The notes beneath the pieces were generated by a model. The model was not told the DNA's origin, did no database searches, and was given only the letters and a program-made list of their open reading frames with translations. A stretch of DNA of 61,770 bases, filler included. It is 8 parts of 8 records of this genome, joined end to end, with 100 filler letters (N's around TTAATTAATTAA, not from the genome) between each part and the next. Parts side by side here need not be neighbours in the genome. Positions count along the whole stretch, not along the records: positions 1 to 8,226 come from SRR31147125_2993; 7 more parts are not named here. One strand, 5' to 3'. Shown in pieces: positions 1-44,631 of the stretch; the first letter of the stretch is position 1, and every line of letters begins with the position of its first letter. A program made the position numbers and the translations under genes.

Positions 1-1
1 A

Positions 2-577
2 AATCCAGTTGTCGAGCAACAACTGGGAACAACATTATATCAGTTCCCGTATGTAACTCCATATTCTAAGACACACACGGGCTACTATTGTACACCTGAG
101 ATGGAAGATAATGTGATTGTTTATTTTCCAAATGAAATAGAGAATACAGCCTATATAATTGGTTGTGTAAATAATGTTGGGAATATTAGGTTTAGCGATA
201 GATATAATAGAAACTTTATAGTACCTGGCGACTCTGAAGGAGCAGATCCACATTATAATTTAGTGATTCAAAATGGAGATATTGTTGAGAATAAAACTAA
301 TCATAGTATGATGTTAAAAAATGATTTCCTTTTAGAAGGAACAAATAATTTCAAAGTTGCAAGTGGGGCAAATATTGTTATAGAATCAACTGCTGATATG
401 CAGATGACATCTGGAAGCAATATACAAATTAAAGCTGAGAGTAACTTTGAGGCAGAGGGAAGCGATGCAGTTAACCTAAAAGGTAAAGAGTTTGTGGCAG
501 AAGGAGATTCAGCTGCAAGTATAAAAGCTGGTTCAGATTTAAGTTTAAGCGGAAGCAAAGTAAATATAGGTGGATAA
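2..577 (+). CDS. VgrG/gp5-like spike protein, C-terminal part (5' truncated at window edge)
   Basis: The frame is open from nt 2, upstream of the listed ATG at 101. It reads QFPYVTPYSKTHTGYYCTPEMEDNVIVYFPNEIENTAYIIGCV, resembling the gp5/VgrG OB-fold motif (G.y.lPEvGDeVvV.F), followed by ~8-residue beta-helix repeats ending LSGSKVNIGG. Confidence 0.8.
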   Translation, partial: NPVVEQQLGTTLYQFPYVTPYSKTHTGYYCTPEMEDNVIVYFPNEIENTAYIIGCVNNVGNIRFSDRYNRNFIVPGDSEGADPHYNLVIQNGDIVENKTNHSMMLKNDFLLEGTNNFKVASGANIVIESTADMQMTSGSNIQIKAESNFEAEGSDAVNLKGKEFVAEGDSAASIKAGSDLSLSGSKVNIGG

Positions 578-586
578 GAGTATAGT

Positions 587-892
587 ATGGAAAGATTAAT
601 TAGAGAATTAGAGGATAAAGCAGAAGGGATAGTACGAGGTTCGAAAAAGCTAAAGTTACGAAAGCTAATAACGAGAAGCATGTATTATTTTGTGGTTCAG
701 GTTGCTAGGAAGGTAAAGTATCTAGAAGCTATAATTGGTGAAACATTTAAAGAGGAAAAAGGAGATTTTTTTATTTTTACATTTCTCATGCCAAAATCAG
801 AACTACCTGTGTATGAGCAAGATTTTCAACCTGTAATAAAACCAAAAAGGAAAAAAGAAAACTACTTTAATTTGGAAAAAAAAGTAATTTGA
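587..892 (+). CDS. N-terminal part of a ~420-aa conserved protein of the VgrG-associated cluster (frameshifted at A8, 876-883)
   Basis: Starts 9 nt after the spike gene. Adding one A to the A8 run joins it in frame to 889..1848 (LEKKSNLILDHVP). From memory it resembles the N-terminus of proteins auto-annotated 'normocyte-binding protein' in Firmicutes VgrG clusters. Confidence 0.6.
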   Translation: MERLIRELEDKAEGIVRGSKKLKLRKLITRSMYYFVVQVARKVKYLEAIIGETFKEEKGDFFIFTFLMPKSELPVYEQDFQPVIKPKRKKENYFNLEKKVI

Positions 893-1848
893 TATTGGAT
901 CACGTTCCAATAACCGGTATGAATTCGAATGAACTAGAGGGCAGAAGATTTAACGGCTTATACACTTTTGAAGAAAAAAAGTATAAATTTGAGATAGAGC
1001 TCCAAAAAAATCATGAGTATATGAAAAAAGTGAGTGAACTCTATAATGTATTTAGAAAAAATAAAAAAAACTGGAGAGGTTTTCCCAGTTATTATTTTGA
1101 AAATATTTATGATATGAAAGTTGTAAGAGTCGAACAAGGAGATGAAGTTGAAAATGCTGGTTTTATTTTTTATGAGAAATATTCCATTGATTTTGAAGAA
1201 ATTCAAAAAAATGTTCACATAGATTGTATTCCAGTTTGGAATGTTTTTTCTGACAAAAGAAATGAACCTTCTCGAGTTAGACCGGTAAAAAATAGATATT
1301 TGTATGAATATAATTTTGGTAAACATACTGAAAACAACACTTTAATTAAAACTTCTTCTGAAATATTATCTGTTTTTAGAGATGACGCTAAAAATTTAAT
1401 GGCTTATTTTGATAAAGAAACTATTTGGACAGTGGAAACACTATATCTCAAACAGAATATTGATGAAAAAAAATATATTCAAGAGAAATCTCAAGTATTA
1501 AGTACGAAAATATTATATTTTGGTGAAAATCAAAAAAGAAATTTTAATGATATGAGGTTAGTCGAAAAATTTGAGTTGAAAAAATATTTAAACAGATTTA
1601 ATTCTTTAAAAGAACTTAGTCTCGAAGAGATGAACTTTGTTGAGGCGTTTGATTCGAATAGTTTAGAAGCAAAAGTTGATTACATTGAAAATGAATTTGA
1701 TTTAATGAAGAGTCGGAAAAAAATGGAACTTTCATTTTCTTGCAAAAATATTAATCATGCAAATGAACTAATCCATTTTGCGGTAGATGTTGTATCTGTT
1801 TTCTTTCCCGAATATATGGTTAGGGGAAGACTTTTGCATAATATGTAG
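889..1848 (+). CDS. C-terminal part of the same protein; putative baseplate (TssF/gp6-like) component
   Basis: Its frame opens only at 871, the TTG start has no clear RBS, and it has CIPVWNV and a terminal FFPEYMVRGRL like the family recalled above. The baseplate role is inferred from operon position. Confidence 0.55.
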   Translation: MILDHVPITGMNSNELEGRRFNGLYTFEEKKYKFEIELQKNHEYMKKVSELYNVFRKNKKNWRGFPSYYFENIYDMKVVRVEQGDEVENAGFIFYEKYSIDFEEIQKNVHIDCIPVWNVFSDKRNEPSRVRPVKNRYLYEYNFGKHTENNTLIKTSSEILSVFRDDAKNLMAYFDKETIWTVETLYLKQNIDEKKYIQEKSQVLSTKILYFGENQKRNFNDMRLVEKFELKKYLNRFNSLKELSLEEMNFVEAFDSNSLEAKVDYIENEFDLMKSRKKMELSFSCKNINHANELIHFAVDVVSVFFPEYMVRGRLLHNM

Positions 1849-1961
1849 TTATATATACAAATAATTTTTGACTAGGTTAAATTACTGAATCAAAACATTT
1901 GAAATAATTATTTAACAAATTTTAGACTTTATAAACGCTTTAAAAGATTAGGGAGAAAATA

Positions 1962-2681
1962 ATGTTCAAAAAAACTTATAGTTATATTTGGAGTGTTCTG
2001 ATTAGAGCTAAAGAAGACGGCAAAGGTGTAGAGGAGATAAAGTTTAAGGCAAGTAAAAAAATATCTCCTTATTCGGAATTAAATGTGGGATATCTTGATT
2101 TTGAGGATATGAAAAGAGTGAATCAGAAATATGAAATTGATGTAAATCCATATATCAGATTTGCTGGTCCATTTACAGAGTTATTAAATATAAATTATAA
2201 AAAATCAATTAAACTTAGAGAAAGTTTGGCAAATGTTTTTTTTCATATTATGGCAAATTTAGATATGATGGAAGGTCAGAGTAAGAGAGAATATCACATT
2301 GAGTTTATAATATTAGATCTGCAAAATAAAAAATTTGGACAAGAGATAAAAACATTATTTAATTTATTTAATGAAAATGAACAACGGAATATTGCAGAGG
2401 TAATGCATGATTTATATACCTTTGAAAATAGAGTAGAAGCGTATAAGAAGGCTTTGAAAAAAATATTTAATGCTTCAATTTTATATAATAACAATTTCTC
2501 AAAGAATGAAGTTGTTGTATATTTAAGTAATAAAGATACTAAAGAAAACAGGCAGAAGTTGAGGTGCCTAGATATGTTATTCCTTCCACTGGGATTAAAA
2601 ACAAGGGTGTTTTGGGAGTATCATTTTGGAATATTAGGTATACCTGCTACAACGAAAATTGGAAAAATTGCAATTTATTAA
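1962..2681 (+). CDS. Conserved protein of VgrG-associated cluster; putative baseplate wedge (TssG/gp48-like) subunit
   Basis: RBS GGGAG upstream. It has EIDVNPYIRF and C-terminal LFLPLG...WEYHFGILG...TKIGKIAIY, recalled from proteins misannotated 'iron-dependent peroxidase'. I recognise no peroxidase motif. Confidence 0.6.
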   Translation: MFKKTYSYIWSVLIRAKEDGKGVEEIKFKASKKISPYSELNVGYLDFEDMKRVNQKYEIDVNPYIRFAGPFTELLNINYKKSIKLRESLANVFFHIMANLDMMEGQSKREYHIEFIILDLQNKKFGQEIKTLFNLFNENEQRNIAEVMHDLYTFENRVEAYKKALKKIFNASILYNNNFSKNEVVVYLSNKDTKENRQKLRCLDMLFLPLGLKTRVFWEYHFGILGIPATTKIGKIAIY

Positions 2682-2702
2682 ATATAGGAAAGAGGGATTA
2701 TT

Positions 2703-5291
2703 GTGGAAAAAAGGTTTTACTCATATGAAGATTTGAAACACAAATCTCAATATGACCTTTACCAAATCTGTAAAAACGAAAGATTAGTTGAAGGAGTTTT
2801 AGTAGGGAAAATAAATAAAAATGAATTGATAAATCTTATTTTAAAATATAGAGGGGAAAAACCAAAATATACAATTGATGATATAAATGAGTTTGGACTT
2901 GCATATATACAGGAGCTTTTGGATAGAAGGCTAAATGCTAGATTACACGATAATGGTCAAATAAAAATACCTAATAAAATCAATATCTACAAAGGTTTAA
3001 ACCTAAGAGCAGATGATAAGTATAGTGTGACACTACCTGATGGGTTAAATAATAGAAATGTGTTTTTAGTAAATGAAAATAATTATTTATGTGGGATATT
3101 TGGTTTAGAAAGAGATAGAAAACATAAGGATAAGTTCTTTTTAACAAGCAATAATGAGCAGTTTAGATTAGAGGGACTTCAAAATGAAAATTTCTCATTG
3201 ATATTCTTTAAAGAAGTTGATTCAAAATTTTTGTATGATTTCTATTATGGAAGAACAGAGAAATACCCACATCAATTAGACTATTTTAAGGCTAAAATTA
3301 ATCAACTGGAGATAAAGAATCTTGAGGATACAAGGACAGCTCTATGTATAGACTTTGGGAGTACAAACACAGTTGCAGGTGCTTTTATTGATCAGTTTTA
3401 TATCAATGATATACCTCAAAATGATGTACAGAACGGAAATATTAAACTTAACGAGATTAACTATGTGTATTTCCCAAAGCATGAGGATTCAGATGAGAAA
3501 ACCGAGATATATCCAACGATAATGTATATAGAGGAATGTTCAGGTGATAATGTAGAGTATCTATTTGGACATGAGGTAAATAATAAACTAAAAGAAAAGA
3601 ACTATATATTAAATGGAACGATACTTTATAAGATTAAATCTTGGATACATGATTTAGATATTGATGAAAAGGTAGTAGATAGTTATGGAAATATTAAGTT
3701 CATACCGCGAAAAGAGATTTTAAGAGAGTATTTTAACTATTTAGTGGAAAAGGCTAGATACCAATTTAAGTGTAATTTTAAAAACCTTCATATTATAACA
3801 CCGGTAAAACTTAAAGAGGAATACCTAAATCTATTTACCAGTATATTACCAGATTACAATATTTTGCAAAAGAACGTTCTAGATGAAGGTATTTCAGTTA
3901 TGTACAACACAATTGAAAAACATATGAGAAATAATCGTTTTGAAAATGGTGGAGAGTATAAGGCATTTATTATAGATTGTGGAGGTTCAACAACTGAACT
4001 TGCTACATGTAATTTTTCGATAACGAAATCTGAGATTTGCTATAACTTGAAGATTTCTACGAGTTTTGAAGATGGTGAAGAGAATTTTGGAGGTAATAAT
4101 ATTACCTATAGAATAATGCAGTATCTTAAAATAGCTCTTTCTCATCATTATTTGGGAAATAGAGATTTTTCCTTTGATGATTTGATTCCTTTTAGAGATG
4201 AGGAAATATATAGACACATTGATCAAAAAGGTATTGCCAGTGTGTATAAAGTTTTTGATAATGAATATAATAAATCAGAAGCAGTAATACCTACAAAATT
4301 TGGAGAGTTTGAAAATAAATCAAGTAGTGAGTATAAAAAAATTAAAAATAACTTTTTCTTTTTATGGGATATAGCGGAAAAACTAAAAGAGTTTTTCTTT
4401 TCAGAAGATAATATTCTACAGGTTAAATTTGACTATGCAGATACTCCTGCAGGGGCTAATATGTCTATACTGCCTATGCCAACTTGGAAACTACATACTT
4501 TGGAAAATGGACTTTTTAAAATTATGGATACTTTTCCTTCAAAAGTGTTTAATGCTTTTGAGCTTAGAAAGTTGATAAAGGGAGATATCTATGAAGTTAT
4601 AAGGAAATTTATGCAACCATATTTTGAAACTGATGAAATATTTGATTATTCTATAATAAAACTTAGCGGGCAGAGTTGTAAGATACCTCTATTTAATGAA
4701 GTATTAAAGGAGTTTGTTCCAGGTAAGTTTATTGATTTTAAAGTAAAAAATAATTCTAACCCATATGAATTAAAACTTAGTTCAATTAACGGAGCCATAA
4801 ATTATCTGAATTCAGCGAGGTTTGGTGATATTAGAGTTGAAATGGTGAATGAAGTTTCAACAATACCAGTATCTGTACGAAGTACGAAGTATACTGGAGA
4901 AGAGGTGTCGGTACTTGAGGTAGGAACAGACATGGATAAAAATATTGGTTATGTTTCTAAAGGTAGTAATGCGATGGAAGTGAATTTTAAGCTATACAGT
5001 TCAGAGAATGAAATGAAGAGAGAGTACCTTTATACGAATACTCTAGATCAATATAGGAATATGACTGCTGAACAAATAGTGAATGAATTTAAGCATAAAA
5101 TAAGTCAAAGGGACTTAGATACAATAGAAAACTTTACAAGTAAATTTTTCGTTTATACAAATACATCTAGTTGGGGATTTTATGTATGTGCTGTAAAAAG
5201 GGAAGATGAAATACTGTATATTGGTGAAAACAAATATTTTCCATTTGATAATAAGAATAATATAATTTCGTTCTTTAATGGAAAACATTAA
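2703..5291 (+). CDS. Atypical Hsp70/actin-fold ATPase ('molecular chaperone' of VgrG-associated clusters), not DnaK
   Basis: Phosphate-1 CIDFGSTNTV, phosphate-2 IIDCGGSTT, FGGNNIT and adenosine-like LSGQSCKIP motifs. It has a ~210-aa N-terminal extension and no DnaK substrate-binding domain signature. Confidence 0.8.
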   Translation: MEKRFYSYEDLKHKSQYDLYQICKNERLVEGVLVGKINKNELINLILKYRGEKPKYTIDDINEFGLAYIQELLDRRLNARLHDNGQIKIPNKINIYKGLNLRADDKYSVTLPDGLNNRNVFLVNENNYLCGIFGLERDRKHKDKFFLTSNNEQFRLEGLQNENFSLIFFKEVDSKFLYDFYYGRTEKYPHQLDYFKAKINQLEIKNLEDTRTALCIDFGSTNTVAGAFIDQFYINDIPQNDVQNGNIKLNEINYVYFPKHEDSDEKTEIYPTIMYIEECSGDNVEYLFGHEVNNKLKEKNYILNGTILYKIKSWIHDLDIDEKVVDSYGNIKFIPRKEILREYFNYLVEKARYQFKCNFKNLHIITPVKLKEEYLNLFTSILPDYNILQKNVLDEGISVMYNTIEKHMRNNRFENGGEYKAFIIDCGGSTTELATCNFSITKSEICYNLKISTSFEDGEENFGGNNITYRIMQYLKIALSHHYLGNRDFSFDDLIPFRDEEIYRHIDQKGIASVYKVFDNEYNKSEAVIPTKFGEFENKSSSEYKKIKNNFFFLWDIAEKLKEFFFSEDNILQVKFDYADTPAGANMSILPMPTWKLHTLENGLFKIMDTFPSKVFNAFELRKLIKGDIYEVIRKFMQPYFETDEIFDYSIIKLSGQSCKIPLFNEVLKEFVPGKFIDFKVKNNSNPYELKLSSINGAINYLNSARFGDIRVEMVNEVSTIPVSVRSTKYTGEEVSVLEVGTDMDKNIGYVSKGSNAMEVNFKLYSSENEMKREYLYTNTLDQYRNMTAEQIVNEFKHKISQRDLDTIENFTSKFFVYTNTSSWGFYVCAVKREDEILYIGENKYFPFDNKNNIISFFNGKH

Positions 5292-5294
5292 TTC

Positions 5295-5334
5295 AAATTA
5301 CTCCCACATGCTATTTTCTAGTGGGAGTAATTTT
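5295..5334 (+). terminator. Rho-independent terminator ending the spike/ATPase operon
   Basis: AAATTACTCCCAC(5295-5307)/GTGGGAGTAATTT(5321-5333) inverted repeat right after the stop codon. Confidence 0.75.
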
Positions 5335-5401
5335 CATGTTGAAGAACGAAATAAAGTTGAATTTTTTTAGGGATTAGTTATTGAGAGTAGAAAGGGAAAA
5401 G

Positions 5402-5470
5402 ATGAAGGAACAGATTAATTTGGTAACTATGATAGTAATAGTTATATTTATAATTACATTTACCTCATAA
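5402..5470 (+). CDS. Possible 22-aa hydrophobic small peptide
   Basis: MKEQINLVTMIVIVIFIITFTS*, preceded by purine-rich AAAGGGAAAAG. Could be chance in AT-rich DNA. Confidence 0.25.
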   Translation: MKEQINLVTMIVIVIFIITFTS

Positions 5471-5627
5471 GGAAGTAAAACGAAAATAACTAGGAAAAAT
5501 AGGAGAAAAGGTAAGCTTAAACCTATGCCGTGCACACCGCGGACTGAAGGAAGTAGGTTATGGGTATAGTAAAGGAATTAAATGTTGTTATAGTCTTAAT
5601 GTAAAGGTTAAAAGAGAAAAAATAAAA

Positions 5628-5672
5628 TAGTCACAAAGTTTCCAGAGATTTTCTCTGTATTCTTTGTGACTA
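5628..5672 (-). terminator. Terminator-like hairpin downstream of lgt
   Basis: TAGTCACAAAG...CTTTGTGACTA with an inner CAGAGA/TCTCTG stem and A/T-rich flanks. Confidence 0.65.
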
Positions 5673-5683
5673 AAATTTTATTT

Positions 5684-6571
5684 TTAGTTGTTTGCTGTTG
5701 CTGAAGGTTCTTTATATATAAATTTCAGTGTAATCAGGGCACCGGCAATTAATATAATACTAATCAAATGAGGTGCTCTTAGTCCTCCTAACATCAAGTC
5801 CTCTGATCTAAAGAAACTTACAAAAGTTCTAATTACTGAATAAAAAATTAAATAAAAACAAGTTAATGTTCCAGCTTTAAGATTTTTCTTTTTAAGTATA
5901 AAGTATAGTATGAAAAAAGCAATAAAGTTAAGAATCATCTCATATAGCATTGCTGGATGTAATGCAAGGTTTGGAAACTCTGAACCTGCTGGTGAACTCT
6001 TAGGAAACACAACTCCCCAAGGTACTAATTCTCTAAATTCAGTTTGTTTTTGTAGAGGTAGTGTGTTATATGAAGCAAACCAGTTATAGAATTTGGGTTT
6101 CACTGAGAAGATAACACTAAGCGGTGTAAATGTAGGAACTCCATGTACCTCGCCGTTCATAAAGTTACCTATACGCCCTATTCCTTGTCCTAGAATAAAT
6201 AAAGGAGCAGCCAAATCTGTTAAAGTCCACAGTTTAATTTTATGTTTACTAGTATAGAATATAGACCAGATTATTCCGCCAAGAATAGCTCCGTGTATTG
6301 CCATCCCACCGTGCCAAACAGCAGGAATCTCAAGTGGCTTAGATAGATAATATTTCAGGTTAAATAGTACATAATAGAGTCTTCCACCTATTAACCCTGC
6401 AACAATTACACTAATTCCATAATTTTCAACTGTATTTTCATCAAGTCCAATCTCTTTGGCATCTTTTTTTGCTAAATATAGTGCCAGAAGAAATGAGAGA
6501 GCATACATTAATCCATAATACCTAAGTTCAATAGGACCAAGTTTAAATAATATTGGATTCAAATTCTTCAC
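5684..6571 (-). CDS. lgt: Prolipoprotein diacylglyceryl transferase
   Basis: GGRLYY, GGMAIHG, GRIGNFMNGE and HPAMLYE motifs. The VHGVPTFTP...KPKFY.W insertion is typical of Fusobacteriota Lgt as I recall it. Confidence 0.95.
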   Translation of the reverse strand: MKNLNPILFKLGPIELRYYGLMYALSFLLALYLAKKDAKEIGLDENTVENYGISVIVAGLIGGRLYYVLFNLKYYLSKPLEIPAVWHGGMAIHGAILGGIIWSIFYTSKHKIKLWTLTDLAAPLFILGQGIGRIGNFMNGEVHGVPTFTPLSVIFSVKPKFYNWFASYNTLPLQKQTEFRELVPWGVVFPKSSPAGSEFPNLALHPAMLYEMILNFIAFFILYFILKKKNLKAGTLTCFYLIFYSVIRTFVSFFRSEDLMLGGLRAPHLISIILIAGALITLKFIYKEPSATANN

Positions 6572-6779
6572 CTTCTTTAAAATTTTAAGTTTTATTTTGA
6601 TATTTTGAGTATTACATATTATAATTATATTGGTATTTTTTCACCACTAGACATAGTATAACATATTTATTTCAACTAAGAAATAGAGTAATTTGTATAG
6701 CTCTAGTTAACACAAAAAAATCGTTTATTTTTAAAAAGCTGAATTTAACTAGAATTATATCAAAAATGCCGAAAAATGC

Positions 6780-6821
6780 TTGTAAAGTATTAATAAAAAT
6801 GATATTATTACTAATATTATC
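6780..6821 (+). promoter_or_regulatory. Sigma70-type promoter of fprA with an overlapping imperfect inverted repeat
   Basis: TTGTAA(6780)-17 bp-TATTAT(6803) with a TGn extension. GATATTATT-ACT-AATATTATC (6801-6821) overlaps the -10. Confidence 0.4.
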
Positions 6822-6903
6822 AATTTTATTAAATAGCAAGATAATTAATAGATATATTTATATATGAATTTGGAAAATATTTGTAAAAGGAGGAGTGCAG
6901 AAA

Positions 6904-8106
6904 ATGCATAATGTAGTAAACATTACTGATAAAATTTATTGGATTGGTACAAATGATAGAAAGACTGACAGGTTTGAAAATATGTGGCCGCTTGATAAAG
7001 GAGTTTCATATAACTCATACCTAATTGTTGATGAGAAGGTAGCTGTTGTTGATACAGTTGAGTTTGGAACTCATGGTACTTATTTACAAAAAATTCAAGA
7101 AGTTTTAGGTGGTAAAGAAGTAGATTATATTATAATAAATCACATGGAACCAGATCACTCTGGTTCAATTGAAACGTTAATTCACAGATATCCAAATGCA
7201 AAATTAGTTGGGAACAACAAAACGCAAAAACTATTAAAAGGTTTTTATGGCATTGAGGATAACTTTCTTGAAATTAAAGAAGGAGATGAGCTTGATTTAG
7301 GTGATCATAAACTAACGTTCGCTATGATGCCAATGGTACACTGGCCAGAATCGATGGTAACTTATGATAAAACAGCTGGAGTACTTTTTTCAAATGACGC
7401 TCTTGGAAGTTTTGGGGCCTTAGATGGCGGAATATTTGACGATGAGTTAAATATCGAAGAGTATGAAGATGAAATGATTAGATATTACTCAAATATCGTA
7501 GGAAAATACGGTGTTCAGGTTCAAATGATTCTTAAAAAGCTTGCGAATATTGATGTGAAATTTGTAGCACCTTCACATGGTCCTATCTGGAGAAGCCATA
7601 TTGATACAGTAATAGGAATGTATGATAAGCTAAGTAAATCTGAACCTCATGCAGAGGGAGTAGTTGTTGTATACGGAACTATGTATGGAAACACAGCTAA
7701 ATCTGCGAATGTAATTGCTAGAAAATTAGCTGAAGAGGGAATCAAAAATATAAAAGTTTATGATGCTTCAAAAACTCACATGTCTTATATTCTTAGAGAT
7801 ATCTGGAAATATAAGGGGCTAGTTATTGGTTCTTGCGCATATAATACAAGCTGCTATCCTAAGATTGAGACTCTGTTAGCTGAACTTGAATTGTACGGAT
7901 TAAAGAATAGATATGTAGGAGCATTCGGAACATACGCATGGAGCGGTGGAGGAATGAAGAAAATTAAAGAGTTCGCTGAAAAAATGAGAGGACTTGAATT
8001 AGTTGGAGAACCAGTTGATATATATTGTTCACCTACAGCAGATGATTATACTAAAGTTGAAGCGATTGCCGTTGATTTAGCAGCAAAACTTAAAGCTGAA
8101 AGATAA
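6904..8106 (+). CDS. fprA: Flavodiiron protein (A-type flavoprotein, O2/NO reductase)
   Basis: Metallo-beta-lactamase HMEPDHSG, HWPE and PSHG motifs plus a flavodoxin TMYGNT loop. ATG 6904 fits the AAGGAGG RBS better than GTG 6895. Confidence 0.93.
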   Translation: MHNVVNITDKIYWIGTNDRKTDRFENMWPLDKGVSYNSYLIVDEKVAVVDTVEFGTHGTYLQKIQEVLGGKEVDYIIINHMEPDHSGSIETLIHRYPNAKLVGNNKTQKLLKGFYGIEDNFLEIKEGDELDLGDHKLTFAMMPMVHWPESMVTYDKTAGVLFSNDALGSFGALDGGIFDDELNIEEYEDEMIRYYSNIVGKYGVQVQMILKKLANIDVKFVAPSHGPIWRSHIDTVIGMYDKLSKSEPHAEGVVVVYGTMYGNTAKSANVIARKLAEEGIKNIKVYDASKTHMSYILRDIWKYKGLVIGSCAYNTSCYPKIETLLAELELYGLKNRYVGAFGTYAWSGGGMKKIKEFAEKMRGLELVGEPVDIYCSPTADDYTKVEAIAVDLAAKLKAER

Positions 8107-8117
8107 TAAAATAGTTT

Positions 8118-8155
8118 AATTGGCAGATAGATGATAGATCTATCTGCCAATTTTT
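8118..8155 (+). terminator. Rho-independent terminator of fprA
   Basis: 15-bp perfect stem AATTGGCAGATAGAT/ATCTATCTGCCAATT followed by Ts. Confidence 0.85.
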
Positions 8156-8226
8156 ATTGATATCATAATAAAGTGTAGAATTTTTAACCATTTATATGAG
8201 TGAAAATAAGGTTCATATTTACACAC

Positions 8227-8326
8227 NNNNNNNNNNNNNNNNNNNNNNNNNNNNNNNNNNNNNNNNNNNNTTAATTAATTAANNNNNNNNNNNNNNNNNN
8301 NNNNNNNNNNNNNNNNNNNNNNNNNN
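8227..8326. other. Artificial contig spacer
   Basis: N44-TTAATTAATTAA-N44, with stops in all six frames. Confidence 0.98.
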
Positions 8327-14786: not shown

Positions 14787-14886
14787 NNNNNNNNNNNNNN
14801 NNNNNNNNNNNNNNNNNNNNNNNNNNNNNNTTAATTAATTAANNNNNNNNNNNNNNNNNNNNNNNNNNNNNNNNNNNNNNNNNNNN
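14787..14886. other. Artificial contig spacer
   Basis: N44-TTAATTAATTAA-N44. Confidence 0.98.
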
Positions 14887-14937: not shown

Positions 14938-16266
14938 TTAATGCTTACTGGCCACTTTAACAGCGTAAAGTGTAATAATTACAAAACACACAGCCGGTAC
15001 CAGATAAGCCATATTTATTCCAGCAGGCAAGGCTATTAATGAGCTTTGTGTTATTTTATCAACCGATGTTGAAACCAAACCTTGCAATTGAGTAATGATA
15101 GCTCCACCAACTATAGTCATAATCAGTCCAGAACCTGCAATTTTGGTATCTTCACCTAAGCCTTTTACAGCCAACCCAAATATTGTTGGAAACATTAGCG
15201 ACATACAACCAGAAACACCAACCAGAGCATAAACACCAACCTGACCACCAACAAATACCACAACTAAAATTAGTGCTATTGCTAAAATACTTGCATAAGT
15301 TAACAAGTTACCGGGTTTGAAATATCTCATAAGGAAAGTAAAAACAAAACGGCAGGCAACAAATAAAACCAAAGATGCGATGTAGTAATTGGCTGCTATT
15401 TGTTCTGCTGTTTTCCCCGCAGGTAAAACTATTTCTTCTAATCTAAGTTCTTGCATGGTATAACGTATTGTAAACGACCAAATTCCAATTTGAGCTCCTA
15501 CATAAAAGAATTGGGCAAGCACCCCGGTTGTATAGTTCCTATTTTTAAGTAGACGTTTTACAGTGGGGCCAAAATCTATGCTGCCACCTGCATCTTTAGT
15601 GCGGGGCATTTTTGCAAAATATATCACTGCCCATAAAACCAATAGCAAAACCCCAATGGTAATGTAAGTCGTAGTTACTGAGTTCAACTCTGCGCCCTGA
15701 ATGACTGCCAACTCACCAGAAGACATGGCTGCTCGTTCTTCTGCCCCTGCCTTGTTTAACGATGACAAAATAAAAACCTGACTAACGACAACCCCCATAA
15801 TTGAGCCAATGGGATTAAACGACTGCGCAAGGTTTAGCCTGCGTGTACCAGTCTCCTCGGGGCCCATGGCAATAATGTATGGGTTGGCTGCGGTTTCAAG
15901 AATAGAAAGCCCACCAAACAATACCCACAATGCCCCTAAAAAATGGAAGTAATTTCCGGTTAATTTTGCTGGAAAAAATAAAATACATCCAATTAAATAT
16001 AAGCCCAGCCCCAATAAAATACCCGATTTATAGGAATATTTTTTTATATAGACTGCAGCAGGAATTGCAAATATAAAGTAGCCCAGTCCATAACAAGAAA
16101 TTTGAATTAACGCTGTTCGTGAATCAGTCATACTCATTATTCGCTTAAATGCAGCAAGCAAGGTATCGGTCATATTATTGGCCAAGCCCCACAAAAAGAA
16201 CAATAAGGTGATTAATATAAATGGGATTAATATGTTTCTAGGGACAATACTTGTTTTAGTATTCAT
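14938..16266 (-). CDS. fucP: L-fucose:H+ symporter (MFS)
   Basis: LFFLWGLANN, LETAANPY, RRLNLAQSFNP, QFFYVGAQ and SLMFPTIF motifs. The start at 16266 avoids overlap with the upstream gene. Confidence 0.9.
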   Translation of the reverse strand: MNTKTSIVPRNILIPFILITLLFFLWGLANNMTDTLLAAFKRIMSMTDSRTALIQISCYGLGYFIFAIPAAVYIKKYSYKSGILLGLGLYLIGCILFFPAKLTGNYFHFLGALWVLFGGLSILETAANPYIIAMGPEETGTRRLNLAQSFNPIGSIMGVVVSQVFILSSLNKAGAEERAAMSSGELAVIQGAELNSVTTTYITIGVLLLVLWAVIYFAKMPRTKDAGGSIDFGPTVKRLLKNRNYTTGVLAQFFYVGAQIGIWSFTIRYTMQELRLEEIVLPAGKTAEQIAANYYIASLVLFVACRFVFTFLMRYFKPGNLLTYASILAIALILVVVFVGGQVGVYALVGVSGCMSLMFPTIFGLAVKGLGEDTKIAGSGLIMTIVGGAIITQLQGLVSTSVDKITQSSLIALPAGINMAYLVPAVCFVIITLYAVKVASKH

Positions 16267-16310
16267 AATAAATTCTATTTGATTTCTGTTAGTGAATAAA
16301 CTTGGAACTC

Positions 16311-17435
16311 CTAAATATCTGTTCTTAAAGGCACCACCATATTCCATGTTTTCTCAAATTGCCAGGCTTTAGGGCCTACTCCTGTCGCCGCAAACAGGTG
16401 CGTTGGTTTTCCATTTTCTACCAGCACAAAAGGTCTTTCAAAATGATTATGCTCGGCATAAGTGCCATCTTCCCACATTACTTTGCGGCTATATGCTTTT
16501 ACTTTATCGAATAGGTTCCAGTTAATGCCATCGTTGGACCAAACATGAACGCCGCCCCCCTCTTCACCACATATTTTACCAGAGCGGTCTTTAACAATGG
16601 CTTCGTATTTATTGCCAGCCCACCAAATATAAGGGTCTTCCACATCAATGCGGTTGTTATCTTCGGTTTCAAACCTGAAAATTGGATCTTCGCTTAAGCG
16701 CTTGTAAGGTCCCTTGGGCGATTGTGCCTTTGAAACACCAAGCAAAAGCGGAGGAACCAATCCATTTGTAGAAGATTTATACATCAACAAAATTTCACCT
16801 GTTTTATCGTTTACCGCTGGTGCAGGATTAGAGGTTATTGAAGCATCCCAGTGACCTGCTCGCGGTTCGATAACTGGTTTATCCAAACGTTTCCAGGGGC
16901 CATAAACACTATCGCTAATGGCAACGCCAATCCGCTTGTTCATCCAGGCTGCCCGCCAATCGTCGGACGTTGGTTTTGGATTGGCAGCATCAGGAGTGGG
17001 AAAATCATAGGTATTACCAAAATAATACAGTAAGTATTGGCTTTTATACTTAATAATTCGCGGATTATGGGTACACAATCCGTCCCAATATTGTGGCCCC
17101 CTAACCGGCAGCGCCACCTCGTGGAATTCGTATGGGCCAACTGGAGTGTCGGCAATGGCATGAGCAATCTCGGAGTTGGTAACCCAATTGCCAAAATCTA
17201 CTTCTTTGCTCCACCTACTGGCAAACATATGGTATCTTCCGTCTTCACCTTTTATTACCGATGAGCCCCAAATCCAATAATTTGGATCGGAAAAACCACC
17301 ATTTTTGGGTGCAGGTAAAATACGGTCGATAAAAGCTATATCGCTATACGCTTGCTGGCATCCCATTAGGCTGGGTGCAAGAGCCATTCCTGCCGTCCCG
17401 CTTGCTGCTATGTTTATAAAGTTCCTTCGTTTCAT
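16311..17435 (-). CDS. Five-bladed beta-propeller glycoside hydrolase (GH43/GH117-like), Tat lipoprotein
   Basis: MKRRNF Tat signal with lipobox LMGC. WGSS, HNP, SNP, EDP and ERP blade motifs. Confidence 0.75.
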   Translation of the reverse strand: MKRRNFINIAASGTAGMALAPSLMGCQQAYSDIAFIDRILPAPKNGGFSDPNYWIWGSSVIKGEDGRYHMFASRWSKEVDFGNWVTNSEIAHAIADTPVGPYEFHEVALPVRGPQYWDGLCTHNPRIIKYKSQYLLYYFGNTYDFPTPDAANPKPTSDDWRAAWMNKRIGVAISDSVYGPWKRLDKPVIEPRAGHWDASITSNPAPAVNDKTGEILLMYKSSTNGLVPPLLLGVSKAQSPKGPYKRLSEDPIFRFETEDNNRIDVEDPYIWWAGNKYEAIVKDRSGKICGEEGGGVHVWSNDGINWNLFDKVKAYSRKVMWEDGTYAEHNHFERPFVLVENGKPTHLFAATGVGPKAWQFEKTWNMVVPLRTDI

Positions 17436-17467
17436 TTTTCTATGTTTTTAGTTAGTTTTTTTGATGT

Positions 17468-19564
17468 TTAATGAATTACTCCAATCTCTCCCACAGAAAT
17501 TTGGTTTCCACCTTCTACTTCCGATTTGGCTACCAATTTGAGGTAACGCGATTCGGTTGATTTAAAAAACTTCGCTTGTAAAACCGGGTTGTTGCGAATA
17601 TTAGAAAATTCGCCTGCCGATTGTTTCTGCCAACGTTTTTTATCCTTGCTGGTGAAAAACTCGTATTGATAGATTAGATTCAAACCATTTCCAATTTGGC
17701 GCGGCATGTAGGTAAAACCTTTAATAGTTTGCAGCTCGCCCATATCAATTATTATCGACATTGGCAGTTTATTATCTTTTTTCGAAGTCCAAACAGAAGC
17801 AGGATTTCCATCAACCAAATTATCACTACCATCCAAATTATTTTCACTAATTACCAGAACTTTCCAAAAGGCTTTTGCTTTTCCGTATTTGGCAAGCGTT
17901 GTTTCACTTTGGCGCTTTTCGTTAGCACAAAATGCAATGGCTTTTATATTGGCCGATTCCGAGCACATAAACGAACCTGCATATTTTTCAGATGCAGAAG
18001 TTGGCTCGCTGCCATCGAGCGTGTAATAAATATCGTAGTCTTCTACTGTTGTTATAGTAACCCAACCTTTTTTATCTCTCGAAACCGATGGTGTTTTAAT
18101 CAAAACCGGAGCATTGTAAACCTCAATTGTTGAGATAAGCGGACAAGCTCTTGCATTGGTAATATTAATGCGTAAAGCGCTTGCATCAACTCTTTCGGTA
18201 CGCAAAATACGTTTGTAGCCAATGGTAGTTTGGTTGGCAATTGTCTTCCATTCTCCGTTTATTTTGGCTTCAATATTAAAGTTGCGTACACGTTGCCCCA
18301 ATGCTATAAATTCCTGCAAAAGTATACGGTTAAAAGCTGTTGGCTGGTTGAAATCGAAAGTTAAGGAAGCCGTTGTAACATTATCGTCGGTGGCCCAGTA
18401 GGTATTTTTATCGCCATCAAGCACATTTTTAGCTTTATATGTTTTACTGTTTCCGCGGACGTTGCTTGCTACTATTTTTGACTTAGAAAGCAATTCGGTT
18501 TCAAAATCTTGTTTGATTTGGGCAGCCCAGCCCTTTAGGCGCGCTTCATCAATTTCGTGCACCAAACCTCTGCGGTCAACCGGAAGGTTTAATAGCAAAC
18601 TGGCATTTCGTCCTACTGATTTGTAATAAATATCCGTTAAGTGTTCAACTGTTTTTACTTTACTATCTTCAACCTGATGGTAGAACCATCCCGGCCGAAT
18701 GGAAACATCGGCCTCGCCGGGCACCCATTTCTCTCCATCTTCGTGTCCCGACATAAATTCTTTGTAATGTACTTTCCCTGCCAATTCATCTTTTTGGCGC
18801 AACATGCTCCAGTTGGTAGGATTTGCCTCACCATGCTCGTTTCCAATCCAACGTGCTTCCGATGGACCAACACCCCAAACCAGGGTATTTGGCGACCATT
18901 CATAAATTAGTTTATAGGTTTCTTCCCAGTTATAATAAATTAAGGTATTTATTTTTCGGCGTTCGTTGGCTCCTCCGTAATAACCAGTTCCGCCATTTGC
19001 TCCGTCGAACCACATTTCGAATACCTCGCCATAATTGGTTAACAGCTCGTGTAACTGGTTTCTGAAATAAGTTACATACTCTTCTTTTCCATATCCCGGA
19101 TGATTTCGGTCCCATGGTGAAAGGTACAAGCCAAATTTTATTCCGTATTCTTTACAGGCCTCGGAAAGTTCGCGCACCACGTCGCCTTTACCGTCTTTCC
19201 ATGGCGACTGCTTAACCGAATGGTCGGTGTATTCCGATGGCCATAAACAAAAACCATCGTGGTGTTTTGCTGTTAAAATTATGCCTTTTAAACCGGCCTC
19301 TTTTACTATACGTGCCCACTGTCGGCAATCCAACTCAGTTGGGTTAAAAATTTCAGGCGACTCATTGCCAAAGCCCCATTCTTTATTTGTGAATGTGTTT
19401 GTAGTAAAATGTACGAATGCGTACATTTCCAAATCGTGCCAAGCCAGTTGCTTTTCAGAAGGAATAGGATAACACGGTTCCGGTGCAGGAGTTTTATCTT
19501 TACAGCTAACAAAACAGCCCAAAACCAGAAAGACCAGTAAAATTTTTAATGTTTTCATATTCAT
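17468..19564 (-). CDS. Alpha-L-fucosidase GH29 with F5/8 (CBM32-like) and FN3-associated domains
   Basis: AKHHDGFCLWPS, LSPWDRN, WFDGA and SIRPGWFY, plus a lipoprotein signal. Confidence 0.92.
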   Translation of the reverse strand: MNMKTLKILLVFLVLGCFVSCKDKTPAPEPCYPIPSEKQLAWHDLEMYAFVHFTTNTFTNKEWGFGNESPEIFNPTELDCRQWARIVKEAGLKGIILTAKHHDGFCLWPSEYTDHSVKQSPWKDGKGDVVRELSEACKEYGIKFGLYLSPWDRNHPGYGKEEYVTYFRNQLHELLTNYGEVFEMWFDGANGGTGYYGGANERRKINTLIYYNWEETYKLIYEWSPNTLVWGVGPSEARWIGNEHGEANPTNWSMLRQKDELAGKVHYKEFMSGHEDGEKWVPGEADVSIRPGWFYHQVEDSKVKTVEHLTDIYYKSVGRNASLLLNLPVDRRGLVHEIDEARLKGWAAQIKQDFETELLSKSKIVASNVRGNSKTYKAKNVLDGDKNTYWATDDNVTTASLTFDFNQPTAFNRILLQEFIALGQRVRNFNIEAKINGEWKTIANQTTIGYKRILRTERVDASALRINITNARACPLISTIEVYNAPVLIKTPSVSRDKKGWVTITTVEDYDIYYTLDGSEPTSASEKYAGSFMCSESANIKAIAFCANEKRQSETTLAKYGKAKAFWKVLVISENNLDGSDNLVDGNPASVWTSKKDNKLPMSIIIDMGELQTIKGFTYMPRQIGNGLNLIYQYEFFTSKDKKRWQKQSAGEFSNIRNNPVLQAKFFKSTESRYLKLVAKSEVEGGNQISVGEIGVIH

Positions 19565-19582
19565 AACTATCTTATTTCGTGA

Positions 19583-21130
19583 TTATTTTTCTTTTAAGAA
19601 TTCGATTTGTTTCCAGAATTCCGAGCCATCATTTTTTTGCTGTTCACCTTCAGTACTTCTGCCATTAAATACAATTTCGCTTAATTCTGAACGGAATTGA
19701 TTTACCAGCTCAGGATGCTTGTCTGCCTTATTATTCTCTTCTGCCACATCATCCTTTAAATTAAACAATTGAACGGATGGAAGTACTTTTCCCATTTGCT
19801 CAACTTGTTTGGGCGTTGGATAACTCCACCCTGCCGAGCCCGAACAAAAACAAACTTTCCAGTCGCCACGACGCAAGGCAAAATTTCCATAACCAGAATG
19901 CTGCACCATACTTTCGCGTTGTGTTTTATCTGAATCGATACCCAAAGCCGAAAGCATACTAAATGAATCTTCGCCTTCATTATCATGAAGCTCCATGGCA
20001 AACAAATCGGTTAGCGTTGCATAAAAATCCGTTGTTGAAACCAACTGCTTGCTTTCGCCACTTTTTATTTTTGCCGGCCAGCTCACAAAAAATGGCACGC
20101 GGTGTCCGCCTTCGTAAATGTCGGCTTTGGTACCTCGGAAATCGCCACTCGGGTTATGTCCTTTCGAAAGAAGGTGCTCGTAATTTGCCACCGGTGAACA
20201 TCCGTTATCGCTGGTAAAAACAATTAGCGTATTCTCTTCTATTCCTTGTTCTTTCAGTGTTTTTGTAATTTCTCCAACCACCCAGTCAATCATTATTACG
20301 AAATCGGCATAAGGACTATCGATACCACTTTTCCCCTTAAAATCGTCGGTTGGCAGAATTGGCAAATGCGGTGCAGGCATCGGAAAGTACAAGAAAAAAG
20401 GACTTTTCTGTTCAGCTTTCTCTTGGATGTAAGCAACCGCTTTTTGCGTTATTTCGGGCAAAACCTGTTCGTGATTGAAATCTTCAGAACAAACTCCCGT
20501 ACGAAACCATCCATATTTCGAGCCACCATCGTCGGCAATTTTGCTAGGAACCATTGTTGGCTGGTCGTTTTCAACCCAAACGTAAGGTGGCATGTCCAGC
20601 GAGCCACAAAATCCATAGAAATAATCAAAGTCTAAAGTAGTAGGCCCGTTTTTAATGGGCTGAGCAAAATCAACACTGTCCTTTCCTTTATCAATACCGT
20701 GCCAGTCCCACCCCAGGTGCCACTTTCCAATACAAGCCGTTTCATAACCTTGTGTTTTCAGAACTGTTGCCAAAGTTGAACGTTGCGGCTTAATCAAAGA
20801 TTTTCCGTAGCCGGTAACCACCCACGATTTCAATTCGGTTCGCCAATTATAACGGCCGGTTAAAATACCATAGCGCGTTGGCGTACAGACAGCTGCGTTG
20901 GTATGCGCATCGGCAAAAACCATCGACGCCTCTGCCAACTTATCTATTTGAGGTGTTTGAATTTTCCCGTTCGGATTTAAGCACGAAACATCGCCATACC
21001 CCAAGTCATCGGCAAGAATATAGATGATATTGGGATTATCGTTCTGCTTTTTGCATTTATTACAGGCCTGAAATACTATCAGCCCGAAAATTAAATATAT
21101 AATAATTGATTTTTCCCTTAGTTTGTTCAT
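19583..21130 (-). CDS. Formylglycine-dependent sulfatase (S1 family, Cys-type)
   Basis: PNIIYILADDLGYGD, CTPTRYGILTGR, GKWHLG and SDNG. Confidence 0.93.
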   Translation of the reverse strand: MNKLREKSIIIYLIFGLIVFQACNKCKKQNDNPNIIYILADDLGYGDVSCLNPNGKIQTPQIDKLAEASMVFADAHTNAAVCTPTRYGILTGRYNWRTELKSWVVTGYGKSLIKPQRSTLATVLKTQGYETACIGKWHLGWDWHGIDKGKDSVDFAQPIKNGPTTLDFDYFYGFCGSLDMPPYVWVENDQPTMVPSKIADDGGSKYGWFRTGVCSEDFNHEQVLPEITQKAVAYIQEKAEQKSPFFLYFPMPAPHLPILPTDDFKGKSGIDSPYADFVIMIDWVVGEITKTLKEQGIEENTLIVFTSDNGCSPVANYEHLLSKGHNPSGDFRGTKADIYEGGHRVPFFVSWPAKIKSGESKQLVSTTDFYATLTDLFAMELHDNEGEDSFSMLSALGIDSDKTQRESMVQHSGYGNFALRRGDWKVCFCSGSAGWSYPTPKQVEQMGKVLPSVQLFNLKDDVAEENNKADKHPELVNQFRSELSEIVFNGRSTEGEQQKNDGSEFWKQIEFLKEK

Positions 21131-21164
21131 TTTGTAATTCTTCAATCGATTATTGTTTCTTAGT

Positions 21165-22805: not shown

Positions 22806-22815
22806 TCTGTTTCTA

Positions 22816-24330: not shown

Positions 24331-24340
24331 TTCTATTCTT

Positions 24341-25683: not shown

Positions 25684-25783
25684 NNNNNNNNNNNNNNNNN
25701 NNNNNNNNNNNNNNNNNNNNNNNNNNNTTAATTAATTAANNNNNNNNNNNNNNNNNNNNNNNNNNNNNNNNNNNNNNNNNNNN
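25684..25783. other. Artificial contig spacer
   Basis: N44-TTAATTAATTAA-N44. Confidence 0.98.
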
Positions 25784-25906
25784 ATAATCGCAAGGATTCG
25801 ACAAATCGAGCGCTGCCTTTAGGCAGAATAAGCGAGATGCGTCCGATATCCCTCTAGATACGCCATACAAACAGGCATCACCGCAAGGGTTCTGATGTAT
25901 AGGCAC
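25784..25906. other. GC-richer multi-hairpin non-coding element cut by contig end (structured RNA or mobile-element end)
   Basis: Adjacent stems CTGCC-TTTA-GGCAG, TATC/GATA and CATCA-CC-GCAA-GG..TGATG, with an abrupt return to AT-rich sequence after GGCAC. Confidence 0.35.
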
Positions 25907-25991
25907 TTTAAATCATGCTAGTTTATCTTTCTAAATCTTTGTTTTTACTCGCTTTCTTAGGAAACGGTATTGGTCTTGGGTCAATAAAGTC

Positions 25992-32055: not shown

Positions 32056-32155
32056 NNNNNNNNNNNNNNNNNNNNNNNNNNNNNNNNNNNNNNNNNNNNT
32101 TAATTAATTAANNNNNNNNNNNNNNNNNNNNNNNNNNNNNNNNNNNNNNNNNNNN
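32056..32155. other. Artificial contig spacer
   Basis: N44-TTAATTAATTAA-N44. Confidence 0.98.
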
Positions 32156-37646: not shown

Positions 37647-37746
37647 NNNNNNNNNNNNNNNNNNNNNNNNNNNNNNNNNNNNNNNNNNNNTTAATTAATT
37701 AANNNNNNNNNNNNNNNNNNNNNNNNNNNNNNNNNNNNNNNNNNNN
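37647..37746. other. Artificial contig spacer
   Basis: N44-TTAATTAATTAA-N44. Confidence 0.98.
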
Positions 37747-44619: not shown

Positions 44620-44631
44620 AAAGGAGATAAT

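Follow-up and report, generated by a model that had tools for sequence, protein, structure and literature searches.

The window analysed here is a stretch of 61,770 nucleotides, of which only positions 1-8226 are contiguous with the operon of interest, the remainder consisting of other contigs with N44-TTAATTAATTAA-N44 linkers between them. The original prediction described a co-oriented operon closed by a terminator, and all five elements are found where it placed them (Table 1), the operon being made up of the end of a VgrG gene, the genes for two proteins termed D and E, an ATPase gene and a hairpin. The hairpin is terminator-like, with a 13-bp stem and a folding energy of -17.5 kcal/mol (z -4.08), and none of 200 shuffled sequences was as stable. 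It was not called by a consensus terminator scan because its 13-nt loop exceeds 8 nt. Beyond the operon the contig carries lgt and then a flavoprotein gene, a pair that has 67-74% nucleotide identity to Fusobacteriota genomes. The window holds four system genes only; genes for an effector, a PAAR protein, a tube or a kinase are not seen there. Run X1 is possibly the source of the window DNA, and a Logan contig of it, which therefore does not constitute independent data, reaches 1529 bases upstream of window position 1.

Table 1. Features of the operon and of the adjacent gene, in window coordinates
Feature	Position	Strand	Basis
VgrG/gp5-type spike C-terminus, 191 aa	2..577	+	5'-open ORF; OB-fold end and beta-helix repeats
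D-family gene, N-terminal piece, 101 aa	587..892	+	D-family HMM positions 20-95
A8 homopolymer, D frame-change site	876..883	+	sequence reading and HMM-located switch
D-family gene, C-terminal piece, 319 aa	889..1848	+	D-family HMM positions 100-418
E-family protein, 239 aa	1962..2681	+	homology to relatives; constant neighbour of D
Hsp70-type ATPase, 862 aa	2703..5291	+	family profile vs PDB sequences
Terminator-like hairpin at operon end	5295..5332	+	folding vs shuffles
lgt	5684-6571	opposite strand (-)	Pfam LGT E 3.5e-70

The spike gene runs off the window start, and the direct family matches of the remaining fragment are weak (Pfam Phage_base_V E 4.9e-4, below cut-off; NCBIfam TssI/VgrG E 3.2e-4; PHROG baseplate assembly protein E 1.3e-3). 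The fragment aligns at 33% identity (E 3.8e-20) with a 486-aa relative that has Phage_GPD above cut-off, and at 40% identity (E 1e-47) with the 546-aa VgrG of genome G004. A profile of the spike family, the window fragment included, retrieves a solved VgrG with an E-value of 2.5e-22, as well as Pvc8 (6e-12) and Afp8 (7e-8). The presence of Phage_GPD in full-length relatives, and of the OB-fold end and beta-helix in the window, identifies the gene as a VgrG, or gp27-gp5, spike. One relative is named 'contractile injection system protein, VgrG/Pvc8 family' by NCBI, and one VgrG of 1254 aa has an N-terminal lipase-like region and is encoded beside five tandem lipase-like/partner gene pairs.

A single protein of about 420 aa had been predicted to follow the spike, where the window has two ORFs. 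A profile built from 24 D relatives matches the first frame with an E-value of 3.2e-7 and the second with 1.7e-42, and BLASTP aligns the 319-aa piece with residues 107-420 of a 422-aa relative (E 2e-11); the two ORFs are one D-family gene. The frame switches at the A8 run, which reads as an A_AAA_AAA heptamer in the upstream frame. The X1 contig spans positions 1-5334 and differs solely by one extra A behind position 875 (A9), from which frame arithmetic makes D a single unbroken frame of about 420 aa, and either A9 or a -1 shift would join the two ORFs. This is the length originally predicted. The D family has a typical size of about 425 aa and the E family of about 235 aa. The E protein of the window shares 26% identity (E 1e-23) with a 238-aa protein of locus L001 and 56% with its counterpart in G004. 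The D, E and ATPase proteins of the window have no PADLOC matches.

Three parts make up the ATPase: some 200 N-terminal residues, a nucleotide-binding domain that contains insertions (approximately residues 210-700) and a C-terminal stretch of about 160 residues. As a single sequence it matches nothing in Pfam or the PDB. With a 45-sequence profile of its family, however, 82 PDB sequences are retrieved at E<=1; each of the 60 matches listed is an Hsp70, BiP or DnaK nucleotide-binding domain (best E 1.4e-5), with the phosphate-1, phosphate-2 and adenosine motifs aligned to those of BiP. Residues G219, K312, E395, G427 and G656 are invariant within the family and D217 and D425 nearly so; from the consensus, K312 and E395 would be the equivalents of the catalytic K70 and E171 of DnaK. 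At the profile level, the three motifs and the conserved Lys/Glu place the protein among the actin-fold Hsp70 nucleotide-binding domains, as had been proposed. Pfam HSP70 is reached at E<=0.01 by three of the 45 family members (best 3.9e-4). No Hsp70 substrate-binding domain or lid is recognised: the PDB matches listed cover the nucleotide-binding domain only and the last 160 or so residues match nothing. Weak SrfB matches are seen in four of the 45 members, and a Selenomonadaceae protein has the ATPase fused to a vWA domain. Misleading automatic names had also been expected for this gene string, and 'molecular chaperone' is indeed attached to the ATPase in Paenibacillus, Lysinibacillus and a Lachnospiraceae MAG; 'iron-dependent peroxidase' was not seen, and 'normocyte-binding protein' was encountered solely in the automatic naming of one Bacillota cluster, which had a TM of 0.30 to a poor model.

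The expectation that the gene string would occur beyond this genome was borne out by a survey of 98 loci holding the ATPase, many of them truncated, in which the genes co-occur across phyla with an association far above chance. Within these loci were found PP2C (61), a Ser/Thr kinase (61), C (60), E (55), D (53), FHA (52), an Hcp-like protein (48), a membrane FHA protein (47), A (45), VgrG (34) and a J-domain protein (33), where A and C are further proteins of about 720 and 260 aa, respectively. The full string is present in loci whose ATPase falls, at 90% identity, into the same clusters as proteins of Lysinibacillus and Paenibacillus, and among 190 Fusobacteriota genomes the ATPase is encoded in 55, A in 59 and both in 52. 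In all five carrier genomes checked, including G004 and G005, which are the closest by DNA of the ATPase region, an A-family gene is located elsewhere, for instance on a different contig, so that split loci appear to be normal for the system. The flanks scanned in relatives consist of housekeeping genes, with no capsid, terminase, portal or tape measure gene; one cluster (G001), for instance, lies between the riboflavin operon (ribD/E/BA/H) and HAD, asparaginase and pseudouridine synthase genes. A prophage or tailocin, one of the circumstances under which the original prediction would have been abandoned, was rejected on these grounds for the related loci examined.

The related loci supply several of the partners that had been anticipated. 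DUF4280 PAAR-like proteins were confirmed in two of two scanned (E 8e-36 and 5e-22), some related loci having DUF4280 proteins with long extensions, and a small J-domain protein lies within the cluster in three of three (E 5e-24 to 3e-29). A Thr-phosphorylation module is made up of a Ser/Thr kinase (Pkinase E 1e-29), which had not been on the list of expected partners, PP2C, and one membrane-anchored and one soluble FHA protein. This T6SS-type module is found in the relatives and not in the window, and it also contributes the membrane parts, the FHA protein having two transmembrane segments and the PP2C proteins one. The Hcp/TssD-like protein is a candidate assignment, since Pfam TssD is matched in two of six scanned at 1e-3 and 7e-3, below cut-off, and the best PDB match of its profile is Hcp1 (6bdc, E 0.045). 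Lipase-type effectors (Lipase_3/Mbeg1) with partner genes are accompanied by pentapeptide proteins (two of two scanned) and an Imm11-like candidate (one of two). HlyD-like and M23 peptidase genes border the Leptotrichiaceae clusters.

A sheath, also anticipated, was not recognised. VipB (PF05943) is present in none of five carrier genomes, with a positive E. coli control, and no sheath family is recognised among the scanned cluster proteins of related loci. Phage_sheath_1 occurs in 26 of the 190 Fusobacteriota genomes, and in G181, where this was checked, it is distant from the system. Likewise, Pfam scans of the proteins of L001, L004 and further loci revealed neither a ClpV (TssH)/AAA+ ATPase nor TssJ/L/M. 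As for a TssE/F/G/K baseplate, searches of Pfam, NCBIfam and PHROGs and of PDB sequence profiles gave no match to C, D or E, nor to A, so that the structural roles given to these four proteins are guesses. In hhalign alignments to T6SS proteins of E. coli 042 and to 27 sheaths from Fusobacteriota prophages, probabilities stayed under 1%, in a comparison whose positive controls failed too.

The T6SS (T6SSi-iv) has in common with the present system a VgrG spike, a PAAR-like tip of the DUF4280 type, which Francisella IglG also represents (PMC5349215), a candidate Hcp/TssD-like protein, effector and putative immunity genes beside vgrG with a pentapeptide-repeat accessory protein, and an FHA, Ser/Thr kinase and PP2C module resembling Fha/PpkA/PppA. 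In contrast, the TssB/C sheath, the TssE/F/G/K baseplate, TssJ/L/M, TssA and ClpV are unrecognised in the present system, which has instead an Hsp70-type ATPase, a J-protein and four proteins of no known family, and which is shared by monoderm Bacillales and diderm Fusobacteriota. With Afp/PVC and the Streptomyces CIS it shares the spike, whose family profile also matches Pvc8 and Afp8, whereas an Afp-type sheath, tube and gp25/gp6 baseplate, tail fibres, tape measure and Cdc48-like AAA+ ATPase are unrecognised in the scanned locus proteins. The ATPase resembles Hsp70/DnaK with J co-chaperones in its three nucleotide-binding motifs, its conserved Lys/Glu and the dedicated J-domain protein of the cluster. 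It differs from Hsp70/DnaK in its length of 860-900 aa, with the extra N-terminal 200 or so residues and insertions, in lacking a recognisable substrate-binding domain, in the absence of GrpE from the present system and in a similarity that, for the window protein, falls below Pfam thresholds.

[quoted passage not shown] The Hsp70/J pair, the FHA/kinase/PP2C module, the Hcp-like protein, A, C, D, E and the Fusobacteriota members are not identified in those parts (PMC8651086, PMC5349215). The literature searched contains no description of the system.

The gene content thus places the locus within a conserved VgrG-centred system of the T6SS/contractile-injection-like kind, in keeping with the original prediction. 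This system is probably an extracellular toxin-delivery machine. It also seems likely, with slightly less assurance, that window positions 2-5334 represent the downstream end of a VgrG-D-E-Hsp70-like module, and that this module is part of a phage-tail-derived machinery for toxin delivery that is widespread in Fusobacteriota and Bacillota and has so far gone uncharacterised. In such a system, effectors would be loaded onto a VgrG/PAAR-tipped, Hcp-like tube, which may be built on a platform that contains D, E and C and sits where the FHA/PP2C proteins mark the membrane. Thr phosphorylation would gate firing or assembly, as in the T6SS, and the J-protein would recruit the Hsp70-type ATPase, which may spend ATP on assembly, remodelling or recycling of the structure. 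The more specific proposal of a sheath-less, non-contractile VgrG/PAAR/Hcp machine, powered by a J-targeted, Thr-phosphorylation-gated Hsp70-type ATPase across diderm and monoderm envelopes, is speculative and may well prove wrong.

A contractile T6SS-like machine is the first alternative to be considered, in which D and E would be diverged TssF/TssG (gp6/gp7) wedges, A the sheath, and the ATPase with its J-protein a replacement for ClpV in sheath disassembly or for TssA in assembly. In 40 gene pairs the Hcp-like gene has the A gene immediately upstream, and A is the most conserved component: Fusobacteriota and the distant loci share 54-57% identity in A but 36-40% in the ATPase. In a language-model feature search, an A homologue led at rank 18 (score 0.93, 155 shared features) to a viral cluster with Phage_sheath_1C in 18% of its members, a result that is a lead only. 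The D gene is followed by E in 45 gene pairs and overlaps it in 41, as expected for subunits of one complex. Moreover, Hsc70 and the J-protein auxilin take apart clathrin lattices. These observations are set against the lack of sequence or profile similarity of A to sheaths and of D and E to TssF/G/K/E, and A alone is as large as TssF would be (about 600 aa). A cryptic sheath in the form of A, and hence a contractile machine, is quite conceivable, if short of an even chance; the complete assignment is more doubtful, as is a ClpV-like recycling role for the ATPase, and its standing in for ClpV/TssA, as first proposed, is surmise.

About as tentative is the view that D, E and the ATPase are not baseplate or recycling parts but a VgrG-specific loading set, akin to Tap/Eag/DUF2169, that folds effectors and mounts them on the cognate spike. 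Folding and loading are classical tasks of Hsp70/J pairs, and the D-E-ATPase trio adjoins a VgrG in all arrangements seen. Effector or partner genes may interrupt the trio, the order in G004 being VgrG-D-E-c15-lipase-ATPase, with L041 and L055 similar, and some genomes have two ATPase copies, with VgrG sharing the locus in the copies examined (G181, G151). However, in Bacillales-type loci the core order is fixed and includes a single D-E-ATPase set, two VgrGs lying downstream, and the distribution of D, E and the ATPase is as wide as that of the core. That D and E are baseplate-like rather than VgrG-specific adaptors is itself rather unlikely.

It is improbable that the system is a producer-internal, phosphorylation-gated stress or phage-response device, comparable to the cytoplasmic CIS of Streptomyces or the Hsp70-containing conflict systems (Kaur et al. 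2020), rather than an intercellular weapon. Its occurrence in monoderm bacilli, where a thick wall would need to be crossed, fits such a device, and the kinase, PP2C, FHA and vWA-ATPase fusion recall themes in PMC7159879. However, the polymorphic lipase-type effectors with tandem partners, the Imm11-like genes and the long-extension DUF4280 proteins are hallmarks of delivered toxins, the HlyD-like and M23 peptidase genes flanking Leptotrichiaceae clusters also tell against it, and GTPase, tubulin and GAP1, the defining parts of the Kaur systems, are not seen in related loci. Least probable by far is a decaying remnant (a prophage tail fragment or dead copy) functionless in this organism, for although D is frameshifted in the window, the contig has only the four system genes and nothing effector-like lies between E and the ATPase, unlike in G004, the non-independent X1 contig restores D by frame arithmetic, the other ORFs are full length with the catalytic positions of the ATPase retained, related loci are without phage genes and a detached A gene is the rule in the five carrier genomes checked.

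T6SS-type weapons are regarded as a Gram-negative trait. If the sheath-less machine were real, secretion systems would gain a new class, and Gram-positive bacteria their first phage-tail-like one. What is added here is a conserved parts list of about 15 genes, in which an Hsp70/J pair, putatively in place of ClpV, is an unexpected ATPase. Cultivable carriers exist in Lysinibacillus, Paenibacillus, Sebaldella and Pseudoleptotrichia, and members occur in host-associated Leptotrichiaceae. If confirmed, the system would change the view of interbacterial antagonism in fusobacteria and among the Firmicutes of gut, mouth and soil.

The locus is occupied from 2 to 5291 by five open reading frames (ORFs), all in the same orientation, which are followed by a hairpin, with lgt lying on the strand opposite to the operon (see the table). 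The operon that the original prediction had placed here is real, with the reservation that the gene of the D family is split in the window. Seven linkers join separate contigs into the window, so the gene order across them is artificial, and physical linkage to the 2-5334 locus is limited to window 1-8226. Further system genes were not found on the other contigs of the window, a lack that is uninformative because only 1-8226 is linked to the locus. The contigs at window 16000-26000 and 40726-55420 have a G+C content of 41%, against 29.7% for the contig of the locus, and encode fucosidases, sulfatases, GH20, a protein bearing the T9SS sorting domain Por_Secre_tail and a Reg_prop/Y_Y_Y hybrid sensor, which we take to be Bacteroidota-like hallmarks; given this gene content, the window assembly may mix organisms. 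A cobalamin riboswitch (36.5 bits) is found at window 32156-32267, exactly at a contig start, with Peripla_BP_2 and FecCD transporter genes downstream.

Features of the locus and linkers of the window
Feature	Coordinates	Strand	Size or score
Spike fragment ORF, 5'-open	2-577	+	191 aa
D, first ORF	587-892	+	101 aa
D, second ORF	889-1848	+	319 aa
E ORF	1962-2681	+	239 aa
ATPase ORF	2703-5291	+	862 aa
Hairpin, 13-bp, behind ATPase	5295-5332	+	-17.5 kcal/mol, z -4.1
Linkers, seven, N44-TTAATTAATTAA-N44	8227-8326, 14787-14886, 25684-25783, 32056-32155, 37647-37746, 48579-48678, 55369-55468		

The two D ORFs (101 and 319 aa) are, on sequence grounds, one D gene. In a D-family profile built from 24 relatives, positions 20-95 correspond to the first frame (E 3e-7) and positions 100-418 to the second (E 2e-42), and the reading frame switches at an A8 run at 876-883. 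When compared with 1-5334, the Logan contig of sequencing run X1 (9,756 bases) has zero substitutions and one additional A behind 875; X1 is the likely source of the window DNA and its contig is therefore not independent data. With A9, frame arithmetic gives a single D protein of ~420 aa, so that the ~420-aa protein of the original prediction stands as a single frame on the X1 contig and gives way to two ORFs in the window. The A8/A9 difference is either an assembly error or slipped-strand variation. A programmed -1 frameshift at A_AAA_AAA is ruled out as the main reading, since D is a single ORF in relatives and the X1 assembly has A9. The X1 contig reaches just 1.5 kb upstream of the window start. 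Run X2, a sediment metagenome, has contigs of 41-251 bases, those over window 1445-5301 being 159-251 bases; in four of these, segments of D, E and the ATPase are aligned with 4-9 differences per contig. A close relative may therefore be present in the X2 sediment, although few of the words are shared. Run X3 has no contig that covers the locus, and no RNA data set was among those listed for it.

At the upstream end of the locus, the spike fragment has weak family matches of its own (Phage_base_V, E 4.9e-4; TssI/VgrG, E 3.2e-4; PHROG baseplate protein, E 1.3e-3). Its homology to complete proteins 486-546 aa long (E 3.8e-20 and 1e-47) is nevertheless clear, and Phage_GPD is above threshold in the 486-aa protein of locus L001, the one full-length relative scanned with Pfam. 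The profile of the spike family matches a solved VgrG structure (E 2.5e-22) and also Pvc8 and Afp8.

Searched as a single sequence, the ATPase has no match in Pfam, NCBIfam or the PDB. Its relatives form 418 representative clusters at E<=1e-3, and a 45-sequence profile matches 82 PDB sequences (E<=1). All of the 60 matches listed are Hsp70/BiP/DnaK nucleotide-binding domains, and the alignments run through the motifs for phosphate-1, phosphate-2 and adenosine. Five residues (G219, K312, E395, G427 and G656) do not vary across the family and two more (D217 and D425) are almost constant; K312 and E395 can be read as the catalytic Lys and Glu of Hsp70. No family was assigned to the first ~200 aa and the last ~160 aa. 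Among the 45 family members, Pfam gives HSP70 in three and SrfB in four, all weakly, the latter labelled 'virulence factor SrfB'. Further relatives come from a Lachnospiraceae MAG, and another is a VWA fusion from Selenomonadaceae (P0289, named 'VWA domain-containing protein' at source), and there are longer relatives with N-terminal extensions.

The surroundings of related ATPase genes were compared by clustering the ORFs of one Leptotrichiaceae MAG contig (L001/L004), 16 Fusobacteriota genome stretches and 80 metagenome loci. Across 98 ATPase loci, many of them cut by contig ends, the ATPase co-occurs with PP2C (61), a Ser/Thr kinase (61), the ~260-aa family C (60), E (55), D (53), a soluble FHA protein (52), an Hcp-like protein (48), a membrane FHA protein (47), the ~720-aa family A (45), VgrG (34) and a J-domain protein (33). 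The typical order in Fusobacteriota is A - Hcp-like - C - J - FHA(TM) - FHA - PP2C(TM) - (PP2C-like) - kinase - ATPase, where VgrG, D and E adjoin the main block or occupy a second locus. In distant loci it is kinase - A - Hcp-like - J - FHA(TM) - FHA - PP2C - PP2C(TM) - D - E - ATPase - C - c24 - VgrG - pentapeptide protein - Imm11-like - DUF4280 - VgrG. Of the 45 pairs in which D and E are neighbours, 41 overlap, and in 40 pairs A stands immediately ahead of the Hcp-like gene. Genome G004, the closest by DNA in the ATPase region among relatives with readable context (ATPase protein 57% identical), has the order VgrG-D-E-c15-lipase-like-ATPase.

The DUF4280, FHA, PP2C and J-domain partners that the original prediction proposed to look for are found in related loci. 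A DnaJ domain is present in all three J-domain proteins scanned (E 5e-24 to 3e-29), and Pkinase, FHA, PP2C, M23, DUF4280 (E 8e-36), pentapeptide, Imm11, HlyD-like and lipase_3/Mbeg1 domains were also detected. Of six Hcp-like proteins scanned, two match Pfam TssD below its cut-off, the best PDB match of the family being Hcp1 6bdc (E 0.045), and a second paralogue of this family adjoins VgrG. Individual loci differ in their cargo. L028 (G135:C1, 6122-17121) encodes a 1254-aa VgrG whose N-terminal region is lipase_3/Mbeg1-like. Upstream of this gene, a lipase-like gene (~230 aa) paired with a partner gene (~280 aa) occurs five times in tandem, in what looks like a polymorphic effector/immunity array. 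A DUF4280-related ORF of 720-818 aa directly upstream of the ATPase in L156 (G138:C49, 4168-6624) appears to encode a PAAR-like protein that has a long extension, possibly one that carries a toxin. In L120, L113, L118 and L119 a second, diverged A paralogue (25-30% identical, ~685 aa) lies directly behind the ATPase; L120 (2611-5724 and 12640-14697) combines the two A types with a tandem pair of Hcp-like genes.

Within Fusobacteriota, the ATPase is present in 55 of 190 genomes and A in 59, both together in 52, the ATPase alone in three and A alone in seven. A was present in all five carriers checked, even where it is on another contig, and the genes of the system are often spread across several loci. 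Several complete Leptotrichiaceae-type genomes (among G149-G164) have A hundreds of kilobases from the ATPase locus. Exact sequence look-ups returned proteins of Sebaldella termitidis and Pseudoleptotrichia goodfellowii, in which D, E and C are named 'hypothetical' and the spike 'VgrG/Pvc8 family'. The ATPases of four loci with the distant order share 90%-identity clusters with Lysinibacillus and Paenibacillus proteins named 'molecular chaperone' or 'Hsp70 family'.

In the related loci examined, the system is neither a prophage nor a canonical T6SS or eCIS. In contrast to the canonical T6SS, an AAA+ ATPase, TssJ/L/M and TssE/F/G/K are not recognised in the system loci scanned, and the same holds for the Afp-type parts of eCIS; VipB was found in none of five carrier genomes, with a positive E. 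coli control. PADLOC has no match for the five window proteins. D and E have clear relatives by sequence, but Pfam, NCBIfam, PHROGs and PDB profiles assign them to no family, and PDB profile searches with A, D, E and C returned no match with an E value under 0.27. With hhalign, probabilities stayed under 1% when A, C, D, E and the Hcp-like protein were compared with TssA/B/C/E/F/G/K/Hcp of E. coli 042, and when A was compared with 27 prophage sheaths; these negatives carry no weight because the positive controls (one sheath subgroup with another, a sheath with TssC, the Hcp-like protein with Hcp) failed too. In the ESM Atlas, which lacks the exact A sequence, the A homologue P0396 finds its own clusters and a weak viral lead (Phage_sheath_1C in 18% of members, score 0.93), and the model of the D homologue P0516 is poor (pLDDT 0.33) and yields no usable match. 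Phage_sheath_1 occurs in 26 of 190 Fusobacteriota genomes, in G181 at ~185 kb from the system. Among 50,697 phage records, a tblastn search with A found three matches at chance level. No prophage location was seen: the cluster of genome G001 is flanked by a riboflavin operon and housekeeping genes, and these flanks, together with the cross-phylum conservation, argue strongly against a prophage remnant.

The relatives show a conserved cross-phylum gene set that, as predicted from its proteins, comprises a VgrG/PAAR-like/Hcp-like puncturing set, polymorphic lipase-type effectors, a Thr-phosphorylation module and an Hsp70/J pair. This conservation supports the general reading of the original prediction, a VgrG-centred toxin-delivery system of the T6SS/contractile-injection kind; the specific roles it proposed, D and E as baseplate subunits and the ATPase as a stand-in for ClpV/TssA, would be candidate assignments. 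A literature search, with subscription journals and supplements outside its coverage, found no description of the gene set; firmicutes appear under T6SS in the accessible text of PMC3482391, which gives no detail there, and the Hsp70-containing GTPase systems in the available portion of PMC7159879 are different from the system here. Effectors would be delivered on a spike-tipped tube put together at a membrane site, with assembly gated by phosphorylation in the manner of the T6SS, and the Hsp70-type ATPase would reach a structural client through the J-protein; A may be a sheath. The system can be seen as a variant form of phage-tail-like secretion and may go beyond one.
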